From Euglena gracilis (taxonomy: Eukaryota): a stretch of DNA of 64,000 bases. The stretch's first letter is position 1; each line of letters starts with the position of its first letter. The notes beneath the pieces were generated by a model. It had not been told where the DNA came from. It saw only the letters and a program-made list of their open reading frames with translations, and searched no databases. The stretch covers positions 32,016,012 to 32,080,011 of the forward strand of contig CP154954.1 in NCBI GenBank assembly GCA_039621445.1. Reading direction: 5' to 3'. Below, one piece after another: positions 35,155 to 49,530 of this stretch. A program made the translations under genes and the position numbers.

Positions 35155-37782
35155 CCTGTCACTTTGTCACTTTTTTCCCTTAAAAAAAGCCCCATGGTGG
35201 AGGAGAGTGTTTGGCAGCTGAGTAAATTGCACACCGAAGGAGCCATTGCAGGTAGTGTTTGAGGTCGTGTTTGATGTGTTCTGTCTTTTAATTTACTATC
35301 GTGGTCGGTGTGCGCAAATGCGCACGTCGTCATGGTGTGCCCATTTCGCACTCCGACGACGTCCATCTTTACACATGTGGTCGGTGTTTGAAAATGTGTA
35401 AACGCCGACCACGTGCGCATTTGCGCAAACTGACCACTTTTTTTATTCTCACCTGGTACTTGATACAGGTGTTTTTCAGTGCGTTTCTGTCTGTTTTCGG
35501 AGCAAAGCTGCGTTGTAAGCTCTTCCAGTTATTGTTGTTTCAAAAGGCTCTAGGCAGCGAGGTCAGTTTACAGTCCATGATATTTGACCCTTCTCATAAA
35601 TGGACGTGAGGTCTGTTTGCGCAAATGCGCACATGTGGTCGATGTGCGCATTTGCGCAAACCGACCTCATCATCTGCCCAAAACTCACGGTATTTGTCAC
35701 ATCAATTTCAGAAGTGTGAATTATCTGGTATTTATGGCCGTTCTTCGGGGGAACTGTACAATGGTCGATGGGCGAAATTGCGCACATCGACCTTCTTTCT
35801 TTGTTCAACAAAATCCCCAGGCACGCCTTCCTTTCTGCGTTCTTGGCCGGCGGTGTGATTGGACCCACCCTAGCCCCCCATGCTTGTTCCCCGCACTCCG
35901 GCAAACGTCCAAAGGCACAAATCCGAGGCCGGCGAAAACAAAAAGTGCGCCAAAACCCCCGGAGGGAGCCAGTCAGGGTCGCCAAAAGCCGGCGAGGAGA
36001 GCTGCATCGCACAAAAAGGAGGGAGGCGGTACTGGGGTTTTGCTGATTTTGCCGGTTGATATTTCATTTAGGGGGGTAGGTCCGGGGGTTTTCCTGGCAT
36101 GCCGACCACCAAAAAAGCAGCTAAAAAACAAAGCAATTTGTGGGACCGCTGTGGCCAAAAATGTAAATTCTGCCGGATTCATTGTCCACCTGTCGCCTCG
36201 CGCTCTCCCCCTTGCAACGCCGGTGCCAAAATCAAAAATTTGGTCGGTTTGCGCAAATGCGCAAATCGACCAAAAACCCTTAAGTGCGAGATGCACTGCC
36301 TAAGAGGGGGAGTTATAAATGTGGGGGGTTTATAAGTGGGAGGGTTCCCCTTTAACCAGCAAGAATCTGGCCAACTGCTGTGCACCGCAACTGATGAGAA
36401 GCCCATGGCTGTTGGAGTCAGACTAAATTTGACCAATCCCATGGGAGGGGGGCCAGACAATTTTTTTTCGACCCCCAAGCGGGGTCACTCCCACTCTTCC
36501 CAAAACCAGTCAATCACTGTTTTTTTTTTGGAAAATCAGTCAGTCACTACCTCCCCCCCCCCGCTACCCCCCCCGGGGGGGGGGGTCGTCACTCTGAAAT
36601 CCAAAAAGGAAAATTGACCACAAATGTGAAAAAAAGCAAAAAAAATTCCGACGCCTTCGGGGCCAGGTCACTGGAATGGTTTTTTTGCCAACCCCCCCCC
36701 CCGGGGGAGGGGGTCCGGGATGAAAACTAGTCAATCATTCTGAAAAAACCAGTCGTCTCCCCCAGGGGGGGGGTCGGCCAGTGACTAAATGATTGTACGA
36801 GGGGAGGCACAAAGCGCAGGAAATACTTTTGGGGGGTCGTCAGGGCTGTATGGGAGGCCTGGCGGGGGGGGGGGTCGGACCCTCCACCCGGGAGGTGGGG
36901 GGTTGGGTCGACACCCCCCACCCACCATGGCACCTGCTCAAAGAGAATTCCTTTCGCGCCGAAAAAAAAACGGTGCCCCCGAAAATATGGGAAGGCCTGG
37001 GGGGGGGTCGGACTGGTCGCACCTACGTGGAAAATCGCCACAAAAATATTATTCATTCCTGGAGGATCTGGCACAGCAGTGCCTGGACCAACGTTGGCCG
37101 TGTCCAACTCCCCTGGGTGGTGTCGGTGTGGGTGTCAGAGTGCCTGTCCAAGCAGGTCCCCCAGGATGGGGTCGGTCTCACGTTGAGCCTGGTCGGAACC
37201 TCGACATAATTGTCATGCCGTCACGGGTGACAGATGGGAGCACGTCAAACAGGGGCTGGAAAGGAGGCCGCCAACACGTATCTCTTCGTTCGGAGACGGA
37301 AGAGGTGGAGGTGGGGACAGCAATGGAACTGGGAACTGGGACAGAAGGCGATTCAGGGGCCGGAAGCAAGCACTCTGCAGGACGCCAACACTGTGGCAGG
37401 CAATGGTGACGGAAGAGACCTGAGGCAGAATTCCGTGGAAACAACGCGGCCTGCTTCCGTGGCAGGGTGGGGGAGAGACGCAACCCAGGAGGATGACACC
37501 AGTTTTGACTAACTGGCACAGGCTTCTATGGTAGGAAATGTGTTCCAACCGGGCTTCTTTTTACCAACCCCAGGGGGGAGGAGGGTGCCTTGTCCTATGG
37601 GCTGCCTGCCCTTAGCAGGCACACACCCCAGGGAGGGTCACTTGCCGACCCAGGCAAATTTCCCTTGAAAATGGCCATTTACGGGTCTCCGGCGCCGAAG
37701 GCATTGGGGGTGTGCTACAGGGTGTGCTACTACCAGTGGGGTCGAAATTGCCCTACCACCCTACCTGCCCACAGCACCTCCG

Positions 37783-38528
37783 TAGATGCACTTTGGCTTC
37801 CGTCTGGTTCAAGGCCTGGCGCTGCATTCCGCTTCTGGCCCTTTCTTCGGAGCAACTCCCAATAATTGTCCAACCCCATATTCACTGGGACTGCAAACTT
37901 CCGTTTTTGTGTTTTCCTTGCAATTCACCTCTCCCTTGGGTTTTTGGCTTATCTTTCCTACACTTGCTGCTGCCGCCGCTTCTGTTGCTGCTCGATTTCG
38001 TTCCCAAGAGGTGTTTACGGTGGTAAGGGGCCTACTCCTCCACTGCATGCCAGCGGGTACCGGTGTCACCGGCAGTGGGCCCTTTTTACCACCACGGCCC
38101 TCCGGGTCCCCCTGGGAAGGAAATACTTTCCGCCGCTGCTTGCTGGGCTGCTGCTGCTACTGCTTCCCTGACTCTTTGGACCCCCTCTGGGCTCTGTGCT
38201 CTTGTGGTTCCCAGTTCTTGCGTTGTGTTCTCCCATTGCTGTTCTCAATGGGATGGGCATATGGGCAGGAGGTGGTCCTCCACCAGCATCCCATACCAGA
38301 CTTGCACATGCGCTGTTCCCCCGTGGGTCTGCCCCGCCCTCCCCATGGGGTGCCCTTCTCTGTGGGCTGCACTTTTTGGGTGTATCCCCACCAGTTGGCT
38401 GGGTGCTGATACAGGGTATAGACACTGCTGTCCAAACCAACACGCCTTGCCAATGCTGGGGGGTGTTGGTGTCGGTGTGAATGTGCCCACCTTTGGCGTG
38501 GTTACGTCCAAGCTGCAGTGGCAAAATC
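37783..38528 (-). mobile_element. Solo 3' fragment / pseudo-LTR of the same PLE family
   Basis: Aligns by eye with 41124-41929 in the same orientation and ends at the same TAGATGCACTTTGGCTTC boundary. It keeps an intact CCCH motif, CKSGMGCWWRTTSCPYAH (38253-38306). Confidence 0.85.
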
Positions 38529-41500
38529 GGCTATTTGAGGTGCACATGCCCACAGCACCCCCCGGGGGGTGCGCACTTGACTCTGTATGAACTGTTACAG
38601 CTGCGCCTGATGCCGCAAAATTCTACAATGCCAGAACAGCACAAAATGTATCCACTGTTGAGATTTGCCTCCCAGCTAGTATGGTGTAGGTGGGGAGCGT
38701 ACCAAACGCCCACTGGAGGAGTTGGAGACACACACACTCAGGGAGAGAGGGCACATATACTATTATTCATCTGAGATGAATCTTAGATGTGTGAAGACTG
38801 TTGGCTGTGGCGTATTAATAATTATGATGGGGGGGACAATAAGGGGGGGGGTAATTACACCCCCCCACAAGGGTACAAAACTACCCCCCTAAAAAGTTCA
38901 CATCCCCCAAAGGAGAAATCACTGTCACATCTCAGGTCAGAAAGACACACACAATTCTCAGAACTGTCCTTCTCGGACCAAATTTTTCTATCGTCCAAGC
39001 CCAAAACTTTGACAGATAATCACTTGACTTCTTGCTTGACATTACAAGAAGGAGAAAAAATGGAAAGAGTGGTGCAAAATCAAGTATTTTGTGCTTTGCC
39101 CTAATAAGTGCGCAGTGCCCTAATAAGTGCGCACCCCTTGGGGTCCAAAATACTTCCTTAAAATGCACACAGCCACACAGCACTTATTCGGGGGATTTTA
39201 CAATCCGTTTTATGTTTCTAATGTTGTGGGTTGGTGGGGCCTTCTGTTTAACTCAGCAGACCTCCCCTGTGTGGGGGTGGGTGGGTGGGTGGGTGGGTCT
39301 GGGGCTGGACCCCCCCCCAACATGGGTGGTCCCAGACCGGGCTTCGGTGGGTGGGGGAACTCCCCTCTCCTCCTGGCGCCAGCAACACAAAAAAAAAACC
39401 ACCAAACAGTCTTCAAATAAATCAGGAGGGAGGGGCCCCACAAAGCTAAATGAATGTGTGGTTGAGTGCCAGGGCTTGAAGTCAGCCAACCCCTCCCCAG
39501 GCTTTCCCTGAGCCAGTTTGAGGGCTAACTTTGGGGGAATCGCTTATGTGTCAGGTGCACAATGATATCTGATTATATACTTTGGTGGCCAAATTCTAAA
39601 TACTATTCTGATATGTCCAATTGTTTGGGGGCCAATTGGGGGGAGGGGAAATATTCTTCCTGTAATAAGACGGGCCCATTTAACCACAAAAGAGATGCCA
39701 GCGAAGGGAAAGAAACAACACTCTCAGGGGAAGAACCACGGAGACAGATTGATATGAGCTGCACATCCAAAAGGTTTTGGACGTGCAGCCCTCCTTTTAT
39801 TTGTTGGGAATGGCCGGATCACAACCCAATCTCTTCCATGCTGCGAAAACCTTGGTGAAATCGTCTGGATTTGTCACTGAAAGTGCTTGGCCTGGAGGTG
39901 GCAAGGGGGTGGGGGTTCCCCTCAAACGGGGGGGGGGGACAACAGCCCGGGCCATCGAGCCTGCCAGCAGGGCCAATGGCCTGCTCAGAACAAGCACTGA
40001 ACCCACGGCAGAACGCAGCCGTCGAGGGCAGTGCAGCCGGGGCATCCACTTGATACCGATGGCGGGTGGGCGGGCACACTGGCTGTTTGCATGACCGGAG
40101 GGTGATCCATCAACCGCACCCTGCGTTGGGGAGAACACAGTGCCGCATGGGAAAGGCAGCAGCGCAAGTCAAAAGCAGAGCCCAACTTTCGTTGTAAATC
40201 CGCATTAAGCTCGGGGAGGGACCCTGAAGTATTTAAAAAAAAAGCAGTCAGTGACTGCATAAGGGGATCAGTCAGTCACTCGTCCACCTGTGGGGTAGTG
40301 AATACCAGCAATATTCCAATGTTGTGTGCGGTATGTTGTATGGCCTGGGACGATGCGGCTGGCGTGCGGCGGCGGTCGGGGTTCGACCCACTTCTGCAGG
40401 AAGTGCACCGCAGAGGAAGGGGGTGGCCTCTGCTAGGGCACAGGGAGGGGGGCTGCTCTCCCAGACCCCACTGCAACCCAGCCAAAATCAGGAAGCAACC
40501 CTGTGTCCATGTCCAGAAAGGACATCGCCATCGGCCATGGGAATCTCCAATGTCCACATGCGTTCTGCCAATTCTTCCAATTCTTTCCCCATTGCTTCAG
40601 CGTGTGGGTGCATCATCAGGAATGCAGAATGGTCGATGGAAAATGTTTTTGATGTTCGGCTCTATGATCCATATCTCAATTACCTCCCTGAACACCGAGG
40701 CGTGGCAAATGAACAGGGGCAAACAGGTCATAAAAAAAATCATACACATACACACTCAATAGCCCGCAAGGTTTTTGGAAGCAAAGCGCACGGCAGCAAC
40801 TCTGGCAAACACAAATGGGAGGTCGCGGAACCCCTTGGTGCAGGGGAGCCGGGGCTCCGCTGGGAGGACAAAGGTGATGGCGTTCCGCCGCTCCTTTGGC
40901 GGAGGGTGACCCTGGGCGTCCGGGGAATGGACCATCTCCTTTTCCTCCTGGAGAAGCAGGCGGCGGTTGATGGTGCAGGCAGGCGGTGCCGCATGCACGC
41001 ACACGCAAAAGCACACCACCAGAATGCTGTTTGTCCGGAAAACAAAACAATTTAAATTACGAATAACTGGAGGAATAATTTAATAATTTATTTTGCAGTG
41101 CAGGGGGTAACTGAAAAACCCCCTTAGGTGCACTTTGGCTTCTGTCTGGTTTAAGGCCTGGCGCTGCATTCCGCTTCTGGCCCTTTCTTCGGAGCAACTC
41201 CCAATAATTGTCTGACCCCATATTCACTGGGACTTCAAACGTCCGTTTTGTGGTTTCCTGGCCCTTCCCCTCCCCTTTGAGCTTTTGGCTCCCCTTTCTT
41301 GCTGCTGCTGCTCTGCTTCTGTTGCTGCTCGATTTCATTCCCAAGTGCTGCTCGGGGTGGTAAGGGGTCTACTCTTCCATTGCGTGCCAGCGGGTGCCGG
41401 TGTCACCGGCAGTGGGTCCTTTTTACCACCACGGCCCTCCGGGTCCCCCTGGGAAGGAAATACTTTCCGCTGCTGCTTGCTGGGCTGCTGCTGCTGCTGC

Positions 41501-42604
41501 TGTTTCCTCGACCCTTTGGACCCCACCTGGGTTCTGTGCTCTTGGTGTGGTTCCCAATTGTTGTGTTGCTGTCTGCGTCGTTGTTCGCAATTGGATGGGC
41601 ATGATGATGAGATCGTGCTCTTGGTTTGGTTCCCAGTTCTTGCGTTGCGTTCTGGTGGTGGTGGTGGTTATGGGATGCTGGTGGTCCTCCACCAGCATCC
41701 CATACCATACTTGCACATGCGCTGTTCCCCCGTGGGTCTGCCCCGCCCTCCCCATGGGGTGCCCTTCTCTGTGGGCTGCACTTTTTGGGTGTATCCCCAC
41801 CAGTTGGCTGGGTACTGGTACAGACACTGCTGTGCAAACCAGCACGCCTTGCCATTGCTGCGGGCGTTGGTGTCGGTGTGGGTGTGTCCACCTTTTGTGT
41901 GGTTACCTCCAAACTGTGGTGGCAAAATCAAGGCGGGTGGTTGGGAGTGTGTGTAGAAGTTGATTTTCCGGTGCCTCGGACTGTGGTCCAGCCTTCGGCA
42001 CTGTTTGGTTTGTTTTGCTAAACGGGTTGGTGCCATTTCTGATGGGGCTGGCTGCCTCCAGGAGCTTGTTGGGCACTTGGTGCATGCCCCGGCTCTCGCC
42101 TTTTTTTTGTCCCCAGGGACCCCCTTTGGCTGTGACCGGAGGACCACGGTTCTCGGCCTCGCCTATCCGCTCCCCTTCCTTCCAGTCGTGGCTCTCCTCT
42201 TTTGCTGCCATTTCTGTGTCCCCATCAGAAGAGAACCTCTCTTTGCCTGACGCCCTCGCCTGGCGCCTCATATTCTGTTCTCTGTGCTCTGTTTGTTCAC
42301 TCTGGTACCATTGAGGTTGGGTCCTGGTGCGTGTGCTTTTCCTGGGCCTGCTCTGCAACAGTACCTCGGTTTCCACCCATGCCAAACCGATGTGCTGCCA
42401 CTCGGCCTCCTCCTCCAGCTGTATGCGCAACACGCCCTCCTCTCCCAAACCACAATGGCGTTGCAGGTCTTCTTCTACCAGCAAGATGTTGAGCTGCCCG
42501 CCTCCAGCAACCCAGAATGCCCAACACCTCGCCAATCGGTCTTTGTTGTGTTTTGTACCACCACGCTTCTCTGTCTCCACCCCTTTCTCCCTCTCCCGTT
42601 CTCC

Positions 42605-42750
42605 TCTTTTGCTCTCTTTGGGTGACATTCCGGGTGGATCAGAAAGCTCTCTTCCCCCTTGTGCTGTGGCTGTGCTGCTCACCCAGGCACTCCCTGGTAA
42701 CTGTTGCAGTCAACTCTCCTGTCCTGTGAAAAACCTCATCCTCCAGTCTT
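42605..42750 (-). pseudogene. Second, degenerate J-domain copy
   Basis: The DNA CGGGTGGATCAGAAAGCTC and TGTTGCAGTCAAC recur from the first J-domain. It translates across frameshifts as ELTATVTRECLG...SFLIHPECHPKRAKE. Confidence 0.6.
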
Positions 42751-43199
42751 TCTCCGCTGGCCCCCTCTGTTCTCGGCACCCTTGGAAATTTGTTTTCTCT
42801 CTTCTGCCACTCTCTGGTCCGGCTGCTCCTCCGTCTTCTTCCACGCAGCACCCGCAGTGGGGCACCTTCAGTCCCCCCCTGGGGCTTGACCCCCGGCACA
42901 CTCGCCTCCCTCGTCGAACCTCCCTTTTGGCGCACCACTGCGCCCCCCCCCATGGCCTCCGGTTGCCTCCTGCCATAGTCTTCCTCTTCTCCCCATGTTC
43001 CGGCCCACCCTCCAGTCCTTCCCCTCCCCTGCGCCCTCTCCCGTTTCCTCCCATTGCCACCCCTCCCTCTCCACCTTCCCCAACACAGCGCCTTCTCCTT
43101 CCACCCCATTGCCTCTACAGCTGCACTGACCCCCCACCCCCAGCCCCCCGTGCCCCCCCCCCCGTCCCCCGGGGTTGGTAATGGTGCCACCTTCTCTGT

Positions 43200-43383
43200 C
43201 ATCCACCCAATCCTTTTCATCTCCCAGCTTCTGAAAAGCCTCTTTGCTCTTTGGGTGGGAACATTCATCCGGGTGGATCAGAAAGCTCATCCTCTTGTAA
43301 ACTGCCATGCAGTCCTGGCTGGGGGTGGTTTCTCGGACCCCCAGGGCTTGCCACGGAGTTGTTGCAGTCAACACTCGTGTCAC
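43200..43383 (-). pseudogene. DnaJ J-domain with intact HPD inside the PLE
   Basis: TPWQALGVRETTPSQDCMAVYKRMSFLIHPDECSHPKSKEAFQKLGDEKDWV; HPD at 43267-43275. Confidence 0.85.
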
Positions 43384-43599
43384 TGCTGCGCTCTACAAAA
43401 CTCATCAACAACTCCACGTCGTCATCAATGAAAACATTGCCCTGGCGACTAGCTTTCTCCCTCCTGATCTTTGCTCTGCGCTTCTGCACAGCTTTCTGGT
43501 AAGCTTCGGCTTTGTTCTCAGCCCTGGTTGGCACCATTAGCAGTGGTTTCCTCACCTTCAAGTGGGTTGTGTGGTGGCTCCTCTCTGGATCCGGGCTTC

Positions 43600-44020
43600 C
43601 GTCTATCATGATCGCGTCGTAATGACCCCTGTTTTGGTGGAACACCACCCGCCTGAGGGGACCTCTGGAGCCATGTTGTGTGCACTCTTGACAATGGTCA
43701 CCATGGTCCAGAAACACCCGCAGTCTGAATTTCAAGACAGGAGGCAACAAAGCCAGCTCCGGTTCTTCAGCCCAATGGATATGGCTGACCACTGATGCCA
43801 AATATCCCTCCTTGTCCCAGTCCAGGGTTGTCAGGGTTTGTCCTACCGACATTCCCGAACCCGGGATCTCTGTATCCCATTCCTCCCTGACATAAGCTGC
43901 TTACTTTGCGTACTTTGCATACTTTGCGGCGCAGTTCCAGTGCCACGGTGCCCTCGTTAGACACGGCAGCGCAATGGAACAGACATGACCCATCGGGGCT
44001 GCTAGCCACAGGGTTGCTTG
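43600..44020 (-). pseudogene. OTU-family cysteine protease (deubiquitinase-like) domain inside the PLE
   Basis: Cys box SSPDGSCLFHCAAV (~43960-44000) is followed by ALELRRKVC. After a frameshift come EGYLASVVSHIHWAEEPELALL and the His box VVFHQNRGHYDAI (~43611-43650). Confidence 0.8.
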
Positions 44021-44092
44021 GTTCTTCCTGACTACTTCCCCGCTGTGCCCACAGCAGCGTTGGCGTGCAGGGTGCTGACGGACTGGCACCTT

Positions 44093-44146
44093 GTGCTGGA
44101 ATGGGCACCCAACTTCTTGGTACAAACACCCGCTTCCAAACCGGCA
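44093..44146 (-). other. CCCH-type zinc finger (C-x5-C-x6-C-x3-H) in frame after the RT thumb
   Basis: CRFGSGCLYQEVGCPFQH in ORF 43901..44971. Confidence 0.7.
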
Positions 44147-44199
44147 CAATTTCTTTGCAAATGGGACAGCTTTGCTGTGCTCCTTGCCCTCCTTCTGCA

Positions 44200-45840
44200 C
44201 TTGCAGCCTCACCACACAAGTCATTTTGCGGAACCACGAACGCAGCTCCACCCGCCGGATTTCTTCCGCTTTCCACCAATCAGCAAGGAATTTGCTCCAC
44301 ATGCGGTCCAGTTCATGCCTAAAATACCCCCTACGGGTGGCTGCCAGGACAATGCCCTGCACTGCAAATTTGAACATTTGCAGCGTAGAGCACAGCCTTT
44401 GTGCTCTGATGAACTGGCCAGTGAGGACCCCTAAGCGCTGGGAGTCTGCGACCATTGACCCTGCCCCTGGGTACCTCCTGATTCGGATTGGGTACGTGCA
44501 ATCTCTGAAATGCATTCCGGTGAAGAACTTCATTTCCCCCGTGTGCACTAGCAGGAGCCACTTGAGGACCATTCCGAGGTACACAGATTCTCCATCATTG
44601 GTCTTTGTGTATTTGTACTGCATGCCATACTGCTCTGCAGTCGGGATGCATCCGGAAAATGAATGAATATCATCAATGAAACGGTAATTGTGCTCCATTT
44701 CCTCAAGTGTCTTTGTGGCGTCAAAACCTCTCTCAACAGGGTAGCAGTCCAGGTTGGCAATTTGGGGTGCACACGCCAACCCCATCCCAAACCCTTTCAC
44801 CTGCTTCAGCAGCGTGCTTCCCCTCTTGATGAACCCAGTGTCAATCACAAATTGCACCATTTCCAACACCTCCTCCTTTGACAAGCATCCAGAAGCATCC
44901 TGTGCTGCTTCCTCTGGCATGAGGTGCACCCACCTGTCTTTCCTTGCCCGCAGCTGGTGCCTCGCTTCCAATCTCTTTTCCTCCCATTCCCAAACCCACA
45001 GATCGCATCCCTGAGCCTGTCCTTCAACAACATCTGGTCAAATGAGGGGTACATTGTTACAAAATACACCGTAGTTGCCATTGCGCCCCGTTTGGCCACA
45101 TCTGTGACTTCAAAGCGCAACGGCTGTGCCACCTCCCCGACCGATTCAACAAACCAGCATGCCTTGGCCAACCCTTTCCTGCGGTTGTGGGCGTCCTTGC
45201 TTCGGAGTGAATGCATCACTTGTGTGTGCACACCCACCAACTCCTTGCCGGCGCCTGCAATGGACCCTTCTGGCTCTGTGTTTTCCTTTCGTTTTTCCTC
45301 CTCCTTGTCTTTTCTCACACCGCTTATCCACTGCAGGTTCCTTTTGGCAGATTTCCAGATTCCATAAATGTGTGCCTGTTGGGCTGCAGCCCTCTCTTTT
45401 CGAGGAAATCCCAATGCCTTTGGGTCAGGGCTTGTGGGTCTTCCTTGTCCACCTGAAAGGTGTGCCCCCACATATATCTGTACGTGTACATGGCCACCCC
45501 AACATGCGGTGCCCAGTCTTCCTTCAGAAACACCAAATGCTCTTGGATGGCCCGGATTTCTTTCTGGCCCATGTCTCCTGTGGGGAACATGGCGTTGTCA
45601 GAGCCTGTGAGCTTCTCCTTCACTCTCTGGATGATTGACAATTTCCAGGCTTCAAAATCTATAGGGTCTCCTCCCCTTTTCATCATTTACTGGATACAGC
45701 CCCTTTCCTAACTCCTGCAGCAAGGTCTCAGCCCTGTGTTCCAGCTTGTAGGCTTGCCCCTTGATCAACAACCCATTTACAAGCGGACTGTTGAACTTCC
45801 TGACATCTGCGGTGCCGATATGTCCTTTCCACACATCTTC
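44200..45840 (-). pseudogene. Reverse transcriptase domain (Penelope-like), frameshifted
   Basis: Split across ORFs 45652..45843, 45324..45686, 44845..45471 and 43901..44971. Motif A reads TTVYFVTMYPSF (catalytic Asp position is Tyr, 45064-45066). Motif B is QVKGFGMGLACAPQIANL and motif C is FIDD (44669-44680). The thumb reads GVLTGQFIRAQRLCS. Confidence 0.92.
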
Positions 45841-46339
45841 CACCCGTGGATGAAGGATATGACAGAAACTTTTGGGGTCTTTCTCACCGTTGATGTTTTC
45901 CCAGTTAAGAGTTCGGCTCTCTGTTTCGCGGTGAGGTCCTCATCTTCAAGCGCAGTGTAATTCAGCAACCAGCTGCCAATGGGTGGAACTTTGCGTTCGC
46001 ACACCCAAATGCGTTCTGCTGCTGTTCGGTCTGGGTGCAACTTGCAAACCTGCAATTCCCGGATCACTTTCCTCACCTCTGGTGCGTTCCATCCTTTGTG
46101 GGTGATTAGCAATTTCACAAAATCTCCTTTGGGCTTCTTCTTGAGCTCCTTGTGTCGCTTGAGCTCCTCCCGCACCAAACGCTCCAGAAAAGAGGTGATG
46201 GCGTCACAAATATCCGTCACCCACTGTTTCGCATCTGCCAGTCCTCTTTCCGACTTGCTGTACCACTCTCGGTGAAAATTTTCTCGGTGGGTGTTCCAAT
46301 CCGCCTTTACACCACCTTTATGGTACCCGCCAGTGCTCC

Positions 46340-46640
46340 CCAGTTGAAGCCCCGCGGCCACCAGGTGCCCAGGAAAGATGCCCACCAGCCCTCTCGATGG
46401 GCAGCTTTCTTGTGAAACTGTTTGTGCCTTTCTCGGCGTCCTGGGAACCTCTCCACTGGCCAACAGATCCATTCAAAAGCACTGGAGCTGTTGCGCATCA
46501 TCATGCTGATGGGGTCAGTCTCCCGGTTTTGACACCCCCAATGTGTTTTCATGCGCTCTTGCGCACCATGGTGGGCCAGGCCCACGTACCCCTTCCCTGA
46601 AGGCAAATGGTGCATGTAATAGATCTCTGAGATTGTGCCA
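46340..46640 (-). pseudogene. GIY-YIG endonuclease domain of the PLE
   Basis: ORF 46307..47008 reads SEIYYMHHLPSGKGYVG (GIY-x10-YVG), then ERMKTH (conserved Arg), HREGWW (conserved Glu) and PRGFN (conserved Asn). Confidence 0.85.
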
Positions 46641-46899
46641 GAATCCCTTCCTTCCACAAATTGCGGGACATGGTGGGAGTCACCATCTGCCCACCACCGG
46701 TGCTGGATGGAGGCCACCTTGGTCTGGACTTCCTTCACGCTCCTTCCTTCCAGATTTTTTACCAGGCACGATGGACCCTCCAGTTGAAAATCTTGAAATC
46801 TTTCCCGGAAAAAAAATGTTTTTTGTCCAAGGGTATGGGAGTGCAATTCTTGGATGTCATGTCCTGAGAGTGCAGGACCCCACGGCTTGCGCGGGTGAT

Positions 46900-47333
46900 C
46901 CCCCTTAGATGCACTTTCGCTTCTGTCTGGTTCAAGGCCTGGCGCTACATTCCGCTTCTGGCCCTTTCTTCGGAGCAACTCCCAATAATTGTCTGACCCC
47001 ATATTCACTGGGACTTCAAACGTCCGTTTTGTGGTTTCCTGGCCCTTCCCCTCCCCCTTGAGCTTTTGGCTCCCCTTTCTTGCTGCTGCTGCTGCTGCTG
47101 CTTCTGTTGCTGCTCGATTTCGTTACAAAGAGGTGCTCGGGGTGGTAAGGGGTCTACTCCTCCACTGCGTGCCGGCGAGTACCGGTGTCACCTGCAGTGG
47201 ACCCTTTTTACCACCACGGCCCTCCGGGTCCCCCTGGGAAGGAAATACTTTCCGCTGCTGCTTGCTGGGATGCTGCTGCTGCTGCTGTTTCCCCGACCCT
47301 TTGGACCCCACCTGGGCTCTGTGCTCTTGGTGT
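46900..47333 (-). repeat. Upstream pseudo-LTR (5'-truncated copy of the element 3' end)
   Basis: Near-identical by eye to 41120-41548. Both share the boundary CCCCTTAG(A/G)TGCACTTT. Confidence 0.85.
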
Positions 47334-47923
47334 ACCCCCCCAGGAGGGGTACTAAAATACACCCCAGGATGGCCAAGCAAAATTTTTTTCCTGTTCACGA
47401 GCTCGGCAATCGCAGATTTTTTTCGGGGGTTTTGACATCAGCAATGATCCTCCACCACCTGCTCCAGCCCGTGTGCAGCTTTGTTGATCGCCCACTCTGG
47501 GCGGAGGCGCGCCGGCAAAAGGCGGGGTCACCGGAGCAGTCGCCAAGGACCGTGGCCGTGGCTGTCGGACAGCGCGCCGGAGGAGGCGGGCCGGCCCGGC
47601 CGCTGGCCCGACACAGATCAAACCACAGCGCCAAATGCGCCGCCCCCCCCCCCCCCGCCCGTTGCCGCCCGGCTTCCACCCGCACCGTCGCCCCCGCAGG
47701 CCTCCGCTCTCCTCCGGTCCCTGGGCGCCTCCCTCATTGTTCCGCCGGGTTGGGAGGCGGGACTGCGTGGGGCCGTTGGACCCGGTCCGGGGGGTCGGCG
47801 ACCGGGGGAGCCGGGGAGGCCTCCGCAGGGCCGGGGGCGCTGGGGCACGAGGTGGGCAGCCCATCGGTTGTCTCTGGAGGGAGGGTCAGGGGAAGAAGAA
47901 ATGCATGCGGTTGCCCTGGGGGG

Positions 47924-48166
47924 CAGGGCTGTACGGGAAGGCCTGGGGGGGGGGTCAACTCCCGCCCACCGTGGGACCTGTTCAAAGAAAATTCCTTCAG
48001 CGCCAAGGCGCCAAAAGAAAAATTTGACCTAAAAATTGGCGCAACGGGAAATAAGGGAAGGCCTGATGGGAGGGACCCGCCCCCCATACCACCAGGATGG
48101 GGGTGGGGAGGTGGTCGACCCCCACCCGACACACCCATCTGTTGCGGGGCATCCCGTACAGCCCAG
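47924..48166. mobile_element. MITE
   Basis: TIRs CAGGGCTGTACGGGA / TCCCGTACAGCCCAG; related left ends at 36841 and ~59720. Confidence 0.65.
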
Positions 48167-48273
48167 CCTGGGAGTGACGTGTTTGTGTCGATGCATCGGG
48201 CGGAGGTCCCGGGACACCAGACATTGTGTGTGTTTTGCTGACACAAGGGCAACCCCCTCACCCCTCCCTGTGC

Positions 48274-48417
48274 GGAGGGCCCGGGCCAACCTTAGGGGTG
48301 GCCAAATTTGTATGTTAAGAATTCTGGCGGTCATATGCAAAAGGCTAAAGGCCAACTTTGCTTTGAGGGGTGACAAATTTGCATGTAAGGAGGAGGGGGG
48401 TCAAGCGCCCGGGGGGT
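48274..48417. repeat. Dispersed repeat family (copies also at ~58445-58590 and ~60890-61066)
   Basis: Shared GGGCCAACCTTA.GGG.GCCAAATTTG.ATGT.AAGAATT...GGCCAACT...CAAGCGCC.G core. Confidence 0.7.
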
Positions 48418-49530
48418 ATTTGGTACTTTATCCTGTGGATTGTTGAATGCGGTGGGATGGGAACTTCTAAAACGTAAAAGTCAGCCCCGTGTTTGAATGC
48501 TTGATCCCAAATTGATCCTCAGAGAAGTCGTGGAGAAACTTAATCCTAAGGTCGCAGAATAATTTCGACTCAACAAACCTCACAAATTTCCTGTTAAAAT
48601 TCCCTCCGACCCATTTTCCCCCTTCGTCAGGTACTTGTATTACTTGTACATGTATTTGGGAAGTCCCAAATTTTGTGCTGGTTTGTGATCATTTGTGGTT
48701 TTTTTGCGGCACGAATTTGTGGGAAACCCTGCACCCACCCACCTTTTGAAAACCTGGCCACCCTACCTCATCCCGCAGGGGGAGGGAATGCAAAATGGAC
48801 ATTTGGCGAGCGCGACGCCAAAAAAAAAAAAACGCTTGCAACGCGCAGGCGCAAAAACAGATGACGCCAAAAAAAAAAACGCAAAATAACGCAAAAAAAA
48901 GTTGCATATGTAAAATCCTTCAGGAGCTCCCCGGGATGTGCACTTTCTGCTGGAAAGGACTTAGAAAAATTTCCACCTCCACCAGGAAACTTTTATTTTG
49001 CATAAAAATATGCCGTTGTTGACAAAAAAAATGCAAAAATGGAAAAATTGGCAATTATTTGTCCCAGAAGAAAATTGGGGTCGAAAATGAAGATTTCTTG
49101 AAAGTCAAAATTTTCAAACAAAAAATAGGAAAATGGCCAAAAATAAAGCAAAAACTGTTGTACCCACGCCAACAGGGAAACTGACATCTGACAAACTGAC
49201 AAACTGATCAGCGAGTACAGAGGTCGGAAACAGGTCCCTGTGAAGACAGGGGACCAGAGGGCGATTTTCTGGGGGTCCGGGTCGAAGAAAATAAAAATTG
49301 GCATTCTTTTGACCCTGGCCGACACAAAAACTCTTAAAATATATTAATGGAAGACATGTCAGCAGATACAGCCTCCTATGATGACAGGTCAGCAGTAACA
49401 GACAGACAGTTTCCCAGGGGTGGACTGACCCTTTCTGAACAGTCCCTGTGAGGACCCCTGGGCCAGGGGTGCTGAAATGGCTGAAAGTTTGGGCAGGCTG
49501 GATGTCACCACCCCCCTTGGTGGCATTGAT

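Follow-up and report, generated by a model that had tools for sequence, protein, structure and literature searches.

The window analysed here, a 64,000-nucleotide (nt) stretch of DNA, encodes on its minus strand, at 43586–44003, what its sequence identifies as a genuine OTU-type deubiquitinase domain in broken form. With a probability of roughly 0.68, the OTU stretch is read as part of a degenerate Penelope-like retroelement that belongs to the Naiad/Chlamys kind and comes from Euglena gracilis or a species near to it; in intact members of this family, the OTU domain and a J domain would together shield the element protein. The window copy itself is a fossil, and the interesting part of the finding lies in the relatives, in which other deubiquitinases have been swapped in at the place of the OTU, some of them likewise accompanied by a J domain.

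The OTU Domain and Its Reading Frames

The cysteine-protease domain at 43586–44003 is split over two minus-strand frames. The three OTU motifs named in the preliminary description (PDGSCLFH, the W-x-x-x-x-EL helix, present as HWAEEPEL, and GHYDAI) are all found on the minus strand and in order. The N-terminal piece (43920–44003), which contains the Asp-Gly-Ser-Cys box SSPDGSCLFHCAAVSNEGTVALELRRKV in a second frame reading PDGSCLFHCAAVSNEGTVALELRRKV, is 89% identical to P0001, the closest relative found, and is out of frame with both the reverse transcriptase (RT) and the remainder of the OTU domain. The C-terminal piece (43586–43900; AAYVREEW...HWAEEPELALL...GHYDAI) is 90% identical to the same protein. 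P0001 is an intact E. gracilis protein of 1264 amino acids (EG_transcript_489 in EukProt), in which the catalytic Cys and His are residues 1074 and 1188, a spacing of 114 residues. The corresponding codons of the window are located at 43983–43985 (Cys) and 43622–43624 (His), with the Asp codon of the PDGSCLFH box at 43992–43994 and that of the GHYDAI box at 43616–43618.

The earlier statement that the domain extends across frameshifts was correct, as the window differs from P0001 by a 1-nt gap and a 19-nt insertion. P0001 is uninterrupted across the RT–OTU region (...LAAPDGSCLFHCAAMSNEGTVALELRRKVAAYVREEW...), and the RT frame of the window (43901–45037, minus strand) loses register after ...ATLWLAAP. 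The missing nucleotide lies beside a G run at 43995–43998, and the 19 additional nucleotides take the form of three 9-nt tandem repeats at 43904–43930, which were not reported by Tandem Repeats Finder at its score threshold. These repeats and a TAA stop in the RT frame (43901–43903) make up the lesion at 43901–43930 on the minus strand. As the net change is +18 nt, the RT frame is also the frame of the OTU C-terminal piece, the two being separated by 31 out-of-frame codons and the TAA. The OTU domain of the window is thus without an uninterrupted reading frame, with the Cys box out of frame and the stop codon at 43901–43903. A programmed frameshift was rejected, because P0001 is intact through the region and the insertion is rare among copies as judged by sequencing depth.

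Identification of the OTU Domain

The separate frames of the window give no Pfam match to OTU, RT, or GIY-YIG, and the OTU identification is backed by the profile matches of relatives, by the fold, and by the conserved catalytic residues. The gathering cut-off of the Pfam OTU family PF02338 (23.3 bits) is reached by five of the eight homologues scanned (P0011, 38.9 bits; P0014, 35.4; P0007, 29.4; P0006, 25.4; and P0016, 24.5), while P0001 and P0002 lie slightly under it and Pfam finds no OTU match in P0018. In the OTU domain alignment, 13 of 16 rows match PF02338 at E ≤ 0.01, with a best value of 4.2e-11, and OTU is the sole match of P0001 against Pfam at E ≤ 10. When a profile of 19 homologues was compared with the PDB, a nairovirus OTU (6dx3) ranked first at an E-value of 4.9e-8, followed by OTUD2 and a Wolbachia OTU.

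The AlphaFold (AF2) model of the P0001 OTU domain has a mean predicted local distance difference test (pLDDT) score of 93.8, and the Foldseek matches listed for it against the PDB are all OTU domains, each with a probability of 1.00. The top matches are OTUD1 (4bop, E-value 6e-8) and nairovirus OTUs, with template modelling (TM) scores of 0.69 to 0.76. A Foldseek search of a viral library gave the same result, and the OTU part of the model of a second relative, P0004, likewise retrieves OTU domains.

The preliminary description had tied its assignment to an OTU profile match and to conservation of the Cys and His among copies; the relatives do match PF02338, and both residues are conserved. 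Among 54 proteins with an OTU domain, a set that includes co-members of 90% clusters and hence non-independent sequences, the catalytic Cys is kept in all 50 proteins covering its column, and 45 of the 46 that cover the His column have the catalytic His. Two positions after the His, the residue is Asp in 34, Asn in 6, Gly in 4, Tyr in 1, and Val in 1. The OTU domains of these proteins are as little as 26% identical to one another. When longer proteins were searched by words with the OTU profile, nine matches were obtained, all from the same element family, and no cellular or viral donor was among them.

A Probable Penelope-Like Host Element

Relatives were retrieved by a profile search of 1.84 billion representatives, with 3434 matches at E ≤ 0.001, 843 at 1e-10, and 195 at 1e-30. 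Of the 55 representatives listed with a length of 650 amino acids or more, the Pfam scan covered 45, namely all except P0074, P0077, P0153, P0164, P0178, P0186, P0192, P0193, P0210, and P0214. In its sequence features, the host element fits the Naiad/Chlamys type of Penelope-like retroelements, in which the GIY-YIG is N-terminal, and it has the domain order GIY-YIG, CxC, telomerase reverse transcriptase (TERT)-like RT, CCCH finger, OTU, and J domain.

The GIY-YIG endonuclease maps to 46343–46627 on the minus strand (IYYMHHLPSGKGYVG followed by R, H, E, and N) and is detected at an E-value of 3e-18 by a hidden Markov model (HMM) built from 21 distant relatives. In the distant relatives behind this model, Pfam GIY-YIG is matched in 9 of 45, and I-TevI (1ln0) is found at an E-value of 6.4e-4. 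No Cys lies between IYY/GIY and YVG in P0001, P0059, or the window, and the lack of a CCHH within the GIY-YIG core is a Chlamys-like rather than a Naiad-like trait. A KR-rich block follows at about 46142 (minus strand, tblastn mapping). The CxC motif is deleted in the window copy; it reads TCPCFS in P0001, TCACFS in P0014, and QCPCFS in P0011, and C-x-C followed by G(H/C)V occurs in 23 of the 45 relatives.

The RT core and thumb, mapped by tblastn, occupy 44221–45540 on the minus strand, with the start of motif B at 44803 and the Asp of the motif C sequence FIDD at 44674. The RT is too divergent for Pfam, in which RVT_1 gives weak matches in 10 of the 45 relatives, and comparison of family profiles with PDB sequences gave no convincing RT match (best, 8bgj at an E-value of about 1); matches to Nup205 and huntingtin in the PDB were dismissed as falling on low-complexity stretches. 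For the AF2 model of P0004 (pLDDT 91.8), Foldseek ranks 1–13 in the PDB are all TERT chains (E-values of 4.7e-9 to 1.6e-6) and the first group II intron RT appears at rank 18, an order that is a structural ranking and not a phylogeny. In P0001, 88 residues separate the Asp of motif A (residue 713) from the Gln of motif B (residue 801), a long spacing at the place where an insertion-in-fingers domain would lie. A PVDKA-type DK motif is present in 16 of the 45 relatives, and the family of the window has EDRAPH (DR) at the aligned place. Partial tandem copies forming pseudo-long terminal repeats (pseudo-LTRs) and 5′-truncated copies are present, as in N-terminal-endonuclease Penelope-like elements, and an Rfam scan of 36000–49000 at E ≤ 1 returned one unrelated weak match and no hammerhead ribozyme.

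The OTU domain had been placed directly after the RT. It does lie downstream of the RT, but the two are not adjacent, since about 75 residues intervene between the end of the RT thumb at 44221 and the OTU Cys box; these include a CCCH zinc finger at 44093–44146 (minus strand), found by mapping and by weak zf-CCCH matches. Beyond the OTU, a J domain (DnaJ) with its HPD motif lies at 43195–43386 on the minus strand, mapped by tblastn of P0002, in a third frame that differs from those of both OTU pieces. The open reading frame (ORF) of the window that contains the HPD motif (42868–43392, minus strand) matches Pfam DnaJ (PF00226) at an E-value of 6.5e-5 with 23.4 bits, below the cut-off of 27.8 bits that is passed by the homologues P0006 (64.5), P0014 (34.4), and P0002 (32.9).

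Exchanged Proteases and J Domains in Relatives

Besides RVT_1 and GIY-YIG, the Pfam scan of the 45 relatives found UCH/USP in seven, Josephin in two, DnaJ in two, and Ulp1 (C48), UCH_1, calpain, PyrI_C, and kinesin with Microtub_bd (P0110) in one each. The USP, Josephin, and Ulp1 domains are all C-terminal of the RT, and P0018 and its cluster have a JAB/MPN+ domain whose HxHx7Sx2D motif is intact. The OTU is succeeded by a J domain in P0002, P0006, P0011, and P0014, as are the USP in P0103 and P0219 and the JAB in P0018 and P0053. Full-length examples are P0222 from Diplonema papillatum (GIY-YIG...UCH), P0219 (UCH...DnaJ), P0053 (JAB...DnaJ), and P0059 (OTU).

An RT tree of 77 rows (91 sequences with enough RT minus 14 near-duplicates) was built as a quick LG+G4 analysis with midpoint rooting, from the relatives retrieved here and without reference Penelope-like elements. 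In this tree, a clade with a Shimodaira–Hasegawa-like approximate likelihood ratio test (SH-aLRT) support of 100 unites the OTU rows and has a JAB row inside it, and across the 17 rows of an RT clade the OTU stays in the reading frame of the RT. The USP rows make up a group of their own (SH-aLRT 92), Josephin and Ulp1 are located elsewhere, and a further clade of 21 rows consists of minimal elements with almost nothing after the RT.

Within the OTU clade, P0028 and P0031 of the P0017 cluster carry PDGLCLFH about 730–750 residues past RT motif C, compared with about 230 otherwise, and this sub-lineage seems to have extra sequence inserted between the RT and the OTU. Two RT+OTU proteins, P0007 and P0023 (EPS58167.1 and EPS57251.1), are filed under the carnivorous plant Genlisea aurea; their source may be trapped or associated protists and not the plant genome. 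P0130, P0222, and further members of their cluster (D. papillatum, KAJ9462022.1 and KAJ9437456.1) are annotated as "Ubiquitin carboxyl-terminal hydrolase 26" with several paralogues, and these are GIY-YIG + RT + USP retroelement proteins.

Decay of the Window Copy and Sequencing Reads

The damage to the window copy is not confined to the OTU domain. RT motif A has Tyr instead of its Asp at 45066, the reading frame shifts near 46330–46376, 45372, and 44996, and four stop codons lie inside the match at 45372–46376. By comparison, the element family has intact, transcribed members, P0001 being an intact transcript-derived ORF.

In contigs of public sequencing runs, word depth over the stretch is in the thousands and falls to 67–279 across 43892–43928, and one contig from an independent 2018 DNA run spans 43871–43998 without gaps. 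The gapless independent contig and the drop in depth indicate that the insertion is real and confined to this copy or to a small number of copies. The best sequencing run contains a fraction of 0.42 of the sampled words of the stretch. RNA reads on the stretch amount to four from each of two runs, with a likeness of 90–99%; as none reaches 99% or more, these reads give no evidence of transcription for this particular copy. In two DNA runs, the contig word depth at 43448–43558 reaches about 39,000, several-fold above that of the remaining element, suggesting a short segment that is shared with many more repeats.

Proposed Role and Alternative Explanations

Intact members of the family have a single long protein, with GIY-YIG, CxC, telomerase-like RT, CCCH, OTU, and J domain in order, and its ORF starts in the preceding partial tandem copy. 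The OTU domain is predicted to act as an isopeptidase, stripping ubiquitin or a ubiquitin-like modifier from a substrate that may be the element protein, its ribonucleoprotein (RNP), or a host factor, while the J domain would recruit host Hsp70, and the putative benefit to the element is that both domains together would shield its large protein from ubiquitin-dependent disposal. The families exchanged in the relatives have the removal of ubiquitin or ubiquitin-like modifiers as their common trait, and the occurrence of USP, JAB/MPN+, Josephin, or Ulp1 in the place of the OTU favours ubiquitin removal over the cutting of a polyprotein. The simplest common function would be the removal of ubiquitin-type modifications with recruitment of Hsp70 alongside, which suggests that these elements need ubiquitin stripping to survive in the cell. 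A wider proposal, somewhat short of an even chance and accordingly tentative, is that a deep clade of Penelope-like elements with an N-terminal endonuclease, abundant in Euglena, Diplonema, and other protists, repeatedly captured proteases of five deconjugating families (OTU, USP, JAB/MPN+, Josephin, and Ulp1), in every case downstream of the RT and in three families together with a J domain. If this were true, the protease and the J domain would constitute a module for evading proteostasis whose parts can be exchanged, and a main host barrier to this class of retrotransposons would be the ubiquitin-dependent disposal of their protein or RNP.

The preliminary description had offered protection of the element protein and cleavage of a polyprotein as two possible functions, of which the former is better supported by the swapped USP, JAB, Josephin, and Ulp1 domains, while the latter found no support. 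The OTU might chiefly be a processing protease that cuts the element polyprotein, or tandem read-through products, so that the endonuclease/RT and the accessory parts are separated; in its favour are the great length of the ORF and its many domains, the in-frame continuation of P0002 into the next MGSDNYW, and the presence, among the best structural matches, those in the viral library included, of viral OTUs inside replicase polyproteins. Such a role is nevertheless unlikely, as the family consensus has no conserved Gly-Gly-type site at the RT–OTU or OTU–J border, no ubiquitin-like domain is among the Pfam matches of these proteins, and the replacements USP, Josephin, Ulp1, and the metalloprotease JAB/MPN+ share isopeptidase action. 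An activity on a SUMO-, NEDD8-, or ISG15-like modifier or on chromatin ubiquitin, altering silencing or target-site access, appears still more doubtful: USP in seven relatives, Josephin in two, and one large JAB cluster stand against a single Ulp1, the family that acts on SUMO. PHD fingers, which are chromatin readers, do occur in some family members, and the matched nairovirus OTUs have been solved with ISG15 as well as ubiquitin, according to the titles of their PDB entries; nothing among these observations discriminates between substrates. The least probable explanation, to which little credence is given, is that the OTU is a passenger, a captured piece of a host or viral gene without a role in transposition. 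Against it stand the retention of the Cys (50/50) and His (45/46) in a domain that has otherwise diverged to about 26–50% identity, the in-frame position of the OTU across the 17-row RT clade, and the acquisition of other ubiquitin-removing families at the same place, even though accessory domains vary among relatives (PHD, kinesin, calpain) and retroelements are described as picking up host sequence (Arkhipova and Yushenova 2019, PMC6431247).

The reading of the OTU and J domains as a shield for the element protein also has to be set against several points that weigh on the other side. The OTU of P0001 falls slightly short of the 23.3-bit cut-off, with 17.9 bits when the whole protein is scanned and 23.1 bits for the isolated domain, 6 of 46 sequences have Gly, Tyr, or Val as the third catalytic residue, and the conservation counts and the RT tree carry the non-independence and the restricted sampling given with them above. 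OTU-like proteases of some RNA viruses cut polyproteins, and some perform both processing and deubiquitination. One relative has a calpain-type match, which is not a deubiquitinase, and eleven long C-terminal extensions are without an assigned family; an Atlas search with one of these, the unassigned extension of P0085, found nothing. Many relatives are automatic gene models, of which some may be fusions, and the kinesin-bearing P0110 is probably a fused gene model of this sort. The window copy itself is a pseudogene, unable to make an active OTU or RT.

Other Features of the Element and Its Surroundings

The full retroelement unit covers 41222–47002 on the minus strand (5781 nt), as mapped by tblastn of P0001, P0002, and P0059, with the frame broken in several places, and the spacing between repeats is 5781–5785 nt. 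Its ORF starts with MGSDNYW at 47002 (minus strand, tblastn). The pseudo-LTR at 47003–47333 (minus strand) is the 331-nt 3′ tail of a preceding 5′-truncated unit, being 93.7% identical to 41222–41548 by blastn and sharing the direct-repeat families D1, D2, and D4. At the opposite end, 41119–41221 (minus strand) is the beginning of a next unit, 103 nt long and with the start codon (96% identity to 46900–47002 by blastn; tblastn of P0001 residues 1–34), and this partial unit ends at the 3′ terminus of the element. As the first 34 codons of the ORF are located at the 3′ end of the element, they are supplied by the upstream partial copy. A separate, heavily 5′-truncated copy of 752 nt at 37777–38528 (minus strand; 84–93% by blastn; repeat families D1–D5) consists of the 3′ tail and the same 103-nt end, terminating at the same position of the unit.

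The C-terminal region of the element protein (41931–42514, minus strand; tblastn of P0002 residues 883–1080) is charged, of low complexity, and without a Pfam match. In P0002, residues from about 1080 to 1270 form four repeats of a CCCH-like finger (CWY...C...CPYWHP) ahead of the start codon of the next unit; the window counterpart of these repeats (41308–42072) is 25% identical and broken. The approximately 2.6 kb between the 3′ terminus of the element and the truncated copy (38529–41119, minus strand) has no similarity to the element, and two ORFs scanned within it gave no Pfam match.

Significance and Comparison with Known Systems

No retroelements are closer to telomerase than the Penelope-like elements, whose dealings with the host cell are little known. 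The presence of an OTU and a J domain in a single element protein would point to a host barrier, ubiquitin-dependent disposal, together with a testable counter-measure, and this argument is strengthened by the USP, JAB, Josephin, or Ulp1 domains swapped in at the place of the OTU. There is also a consequence for annotation, as some element copies are filed as host genes, such as the RT–USP protein of D. papillatum. Full-text literature searches found no report of an OTU, a deubiquitinase, or DnaJ paired with Penelope-like elements, no Penelope-like elements reported in Euglenozoa, and no Euglena retrotransposon with an OTU; the main text of PMC8557442 is free of the terms OTU, ubiquitin, DnaJ, and Euglen-. 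In the searched text of the E. gracilis and D. papillatum genome papers, Penelope-like elements are unmentioned, and they appear to be missing from the repeat descriptions given there.

Among solved structures, the OTUs of nairovirus L proteins and human OTUD1 are the closest (TM scores of 0.69–0.76, E-values of 5e-8 to 1e-6), and they share a compact domain, some 150 residues long, in which D-G-x-C holds the Cys and H-x-D the His and Asp. They differ in their carriers, an RNA virus polymerase and a cellular protein, and in sequence, with 15–21% identity; common descent is shown only at the level of the OTU superfamily. Helentrons, as described in PMC6431247, are eukaryotic transposons that likewise encode an OTU-like cysteine protease; in contrast to the present element, they are rolling-circle DNA transposons. 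Ubiquitin- or SUMO-type cysteine proteases within the element protein are also known from non-LTR retrotransposons. Dualen elements have a Josephin-like protease with a suggested role in disrupting protein degradation (as cited in PMC8557442), and NeSL and Utopia elements have a Ulp1-like protease (PMC4640811). These non-LTR elements differ in their apurinic/apyrimidinic (APE) or restriction-like (RLE) endonucleases and in the protease families used, and the protease of NeSL and Utopia is N-terminal.

Closer to the present case is Chlamys-1_cBra from Chara braunii, described in PMC8557442 as having a long C-terminal extension with weak homology to Josephin, a deubiquitinase-type cysteine protease. 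It is likewise a Chlamys element with a protease-like extension, but the protease is a Josephin and not an OTU, and no J domain is mentioned in the description. With Chlamys and Naiad in general, as described by Craig, Yushenova, Rodriguez, and Arkhipova (2021, PMC8557442), the element of the window shares the N-terminal GIY-YIG, the KR-rich block, the CxC before the RT, the long spacer between motifs A and B, the pseudo-LTR partial tandems, the 5′ truncation, and the lack of a hammerhead ribozyme; as in Chlamys, the GIY-YIG core is without CCHH, and the length of the element falls within the 3.3–8.2 kb given for that group. It differs from both in having DR in place of the DK motif, the distant relatives having PVDKA, in residing in a euglenozoan host, and in the C-terminal extension that carries the CCCH finger, the OTU, and the J domain.
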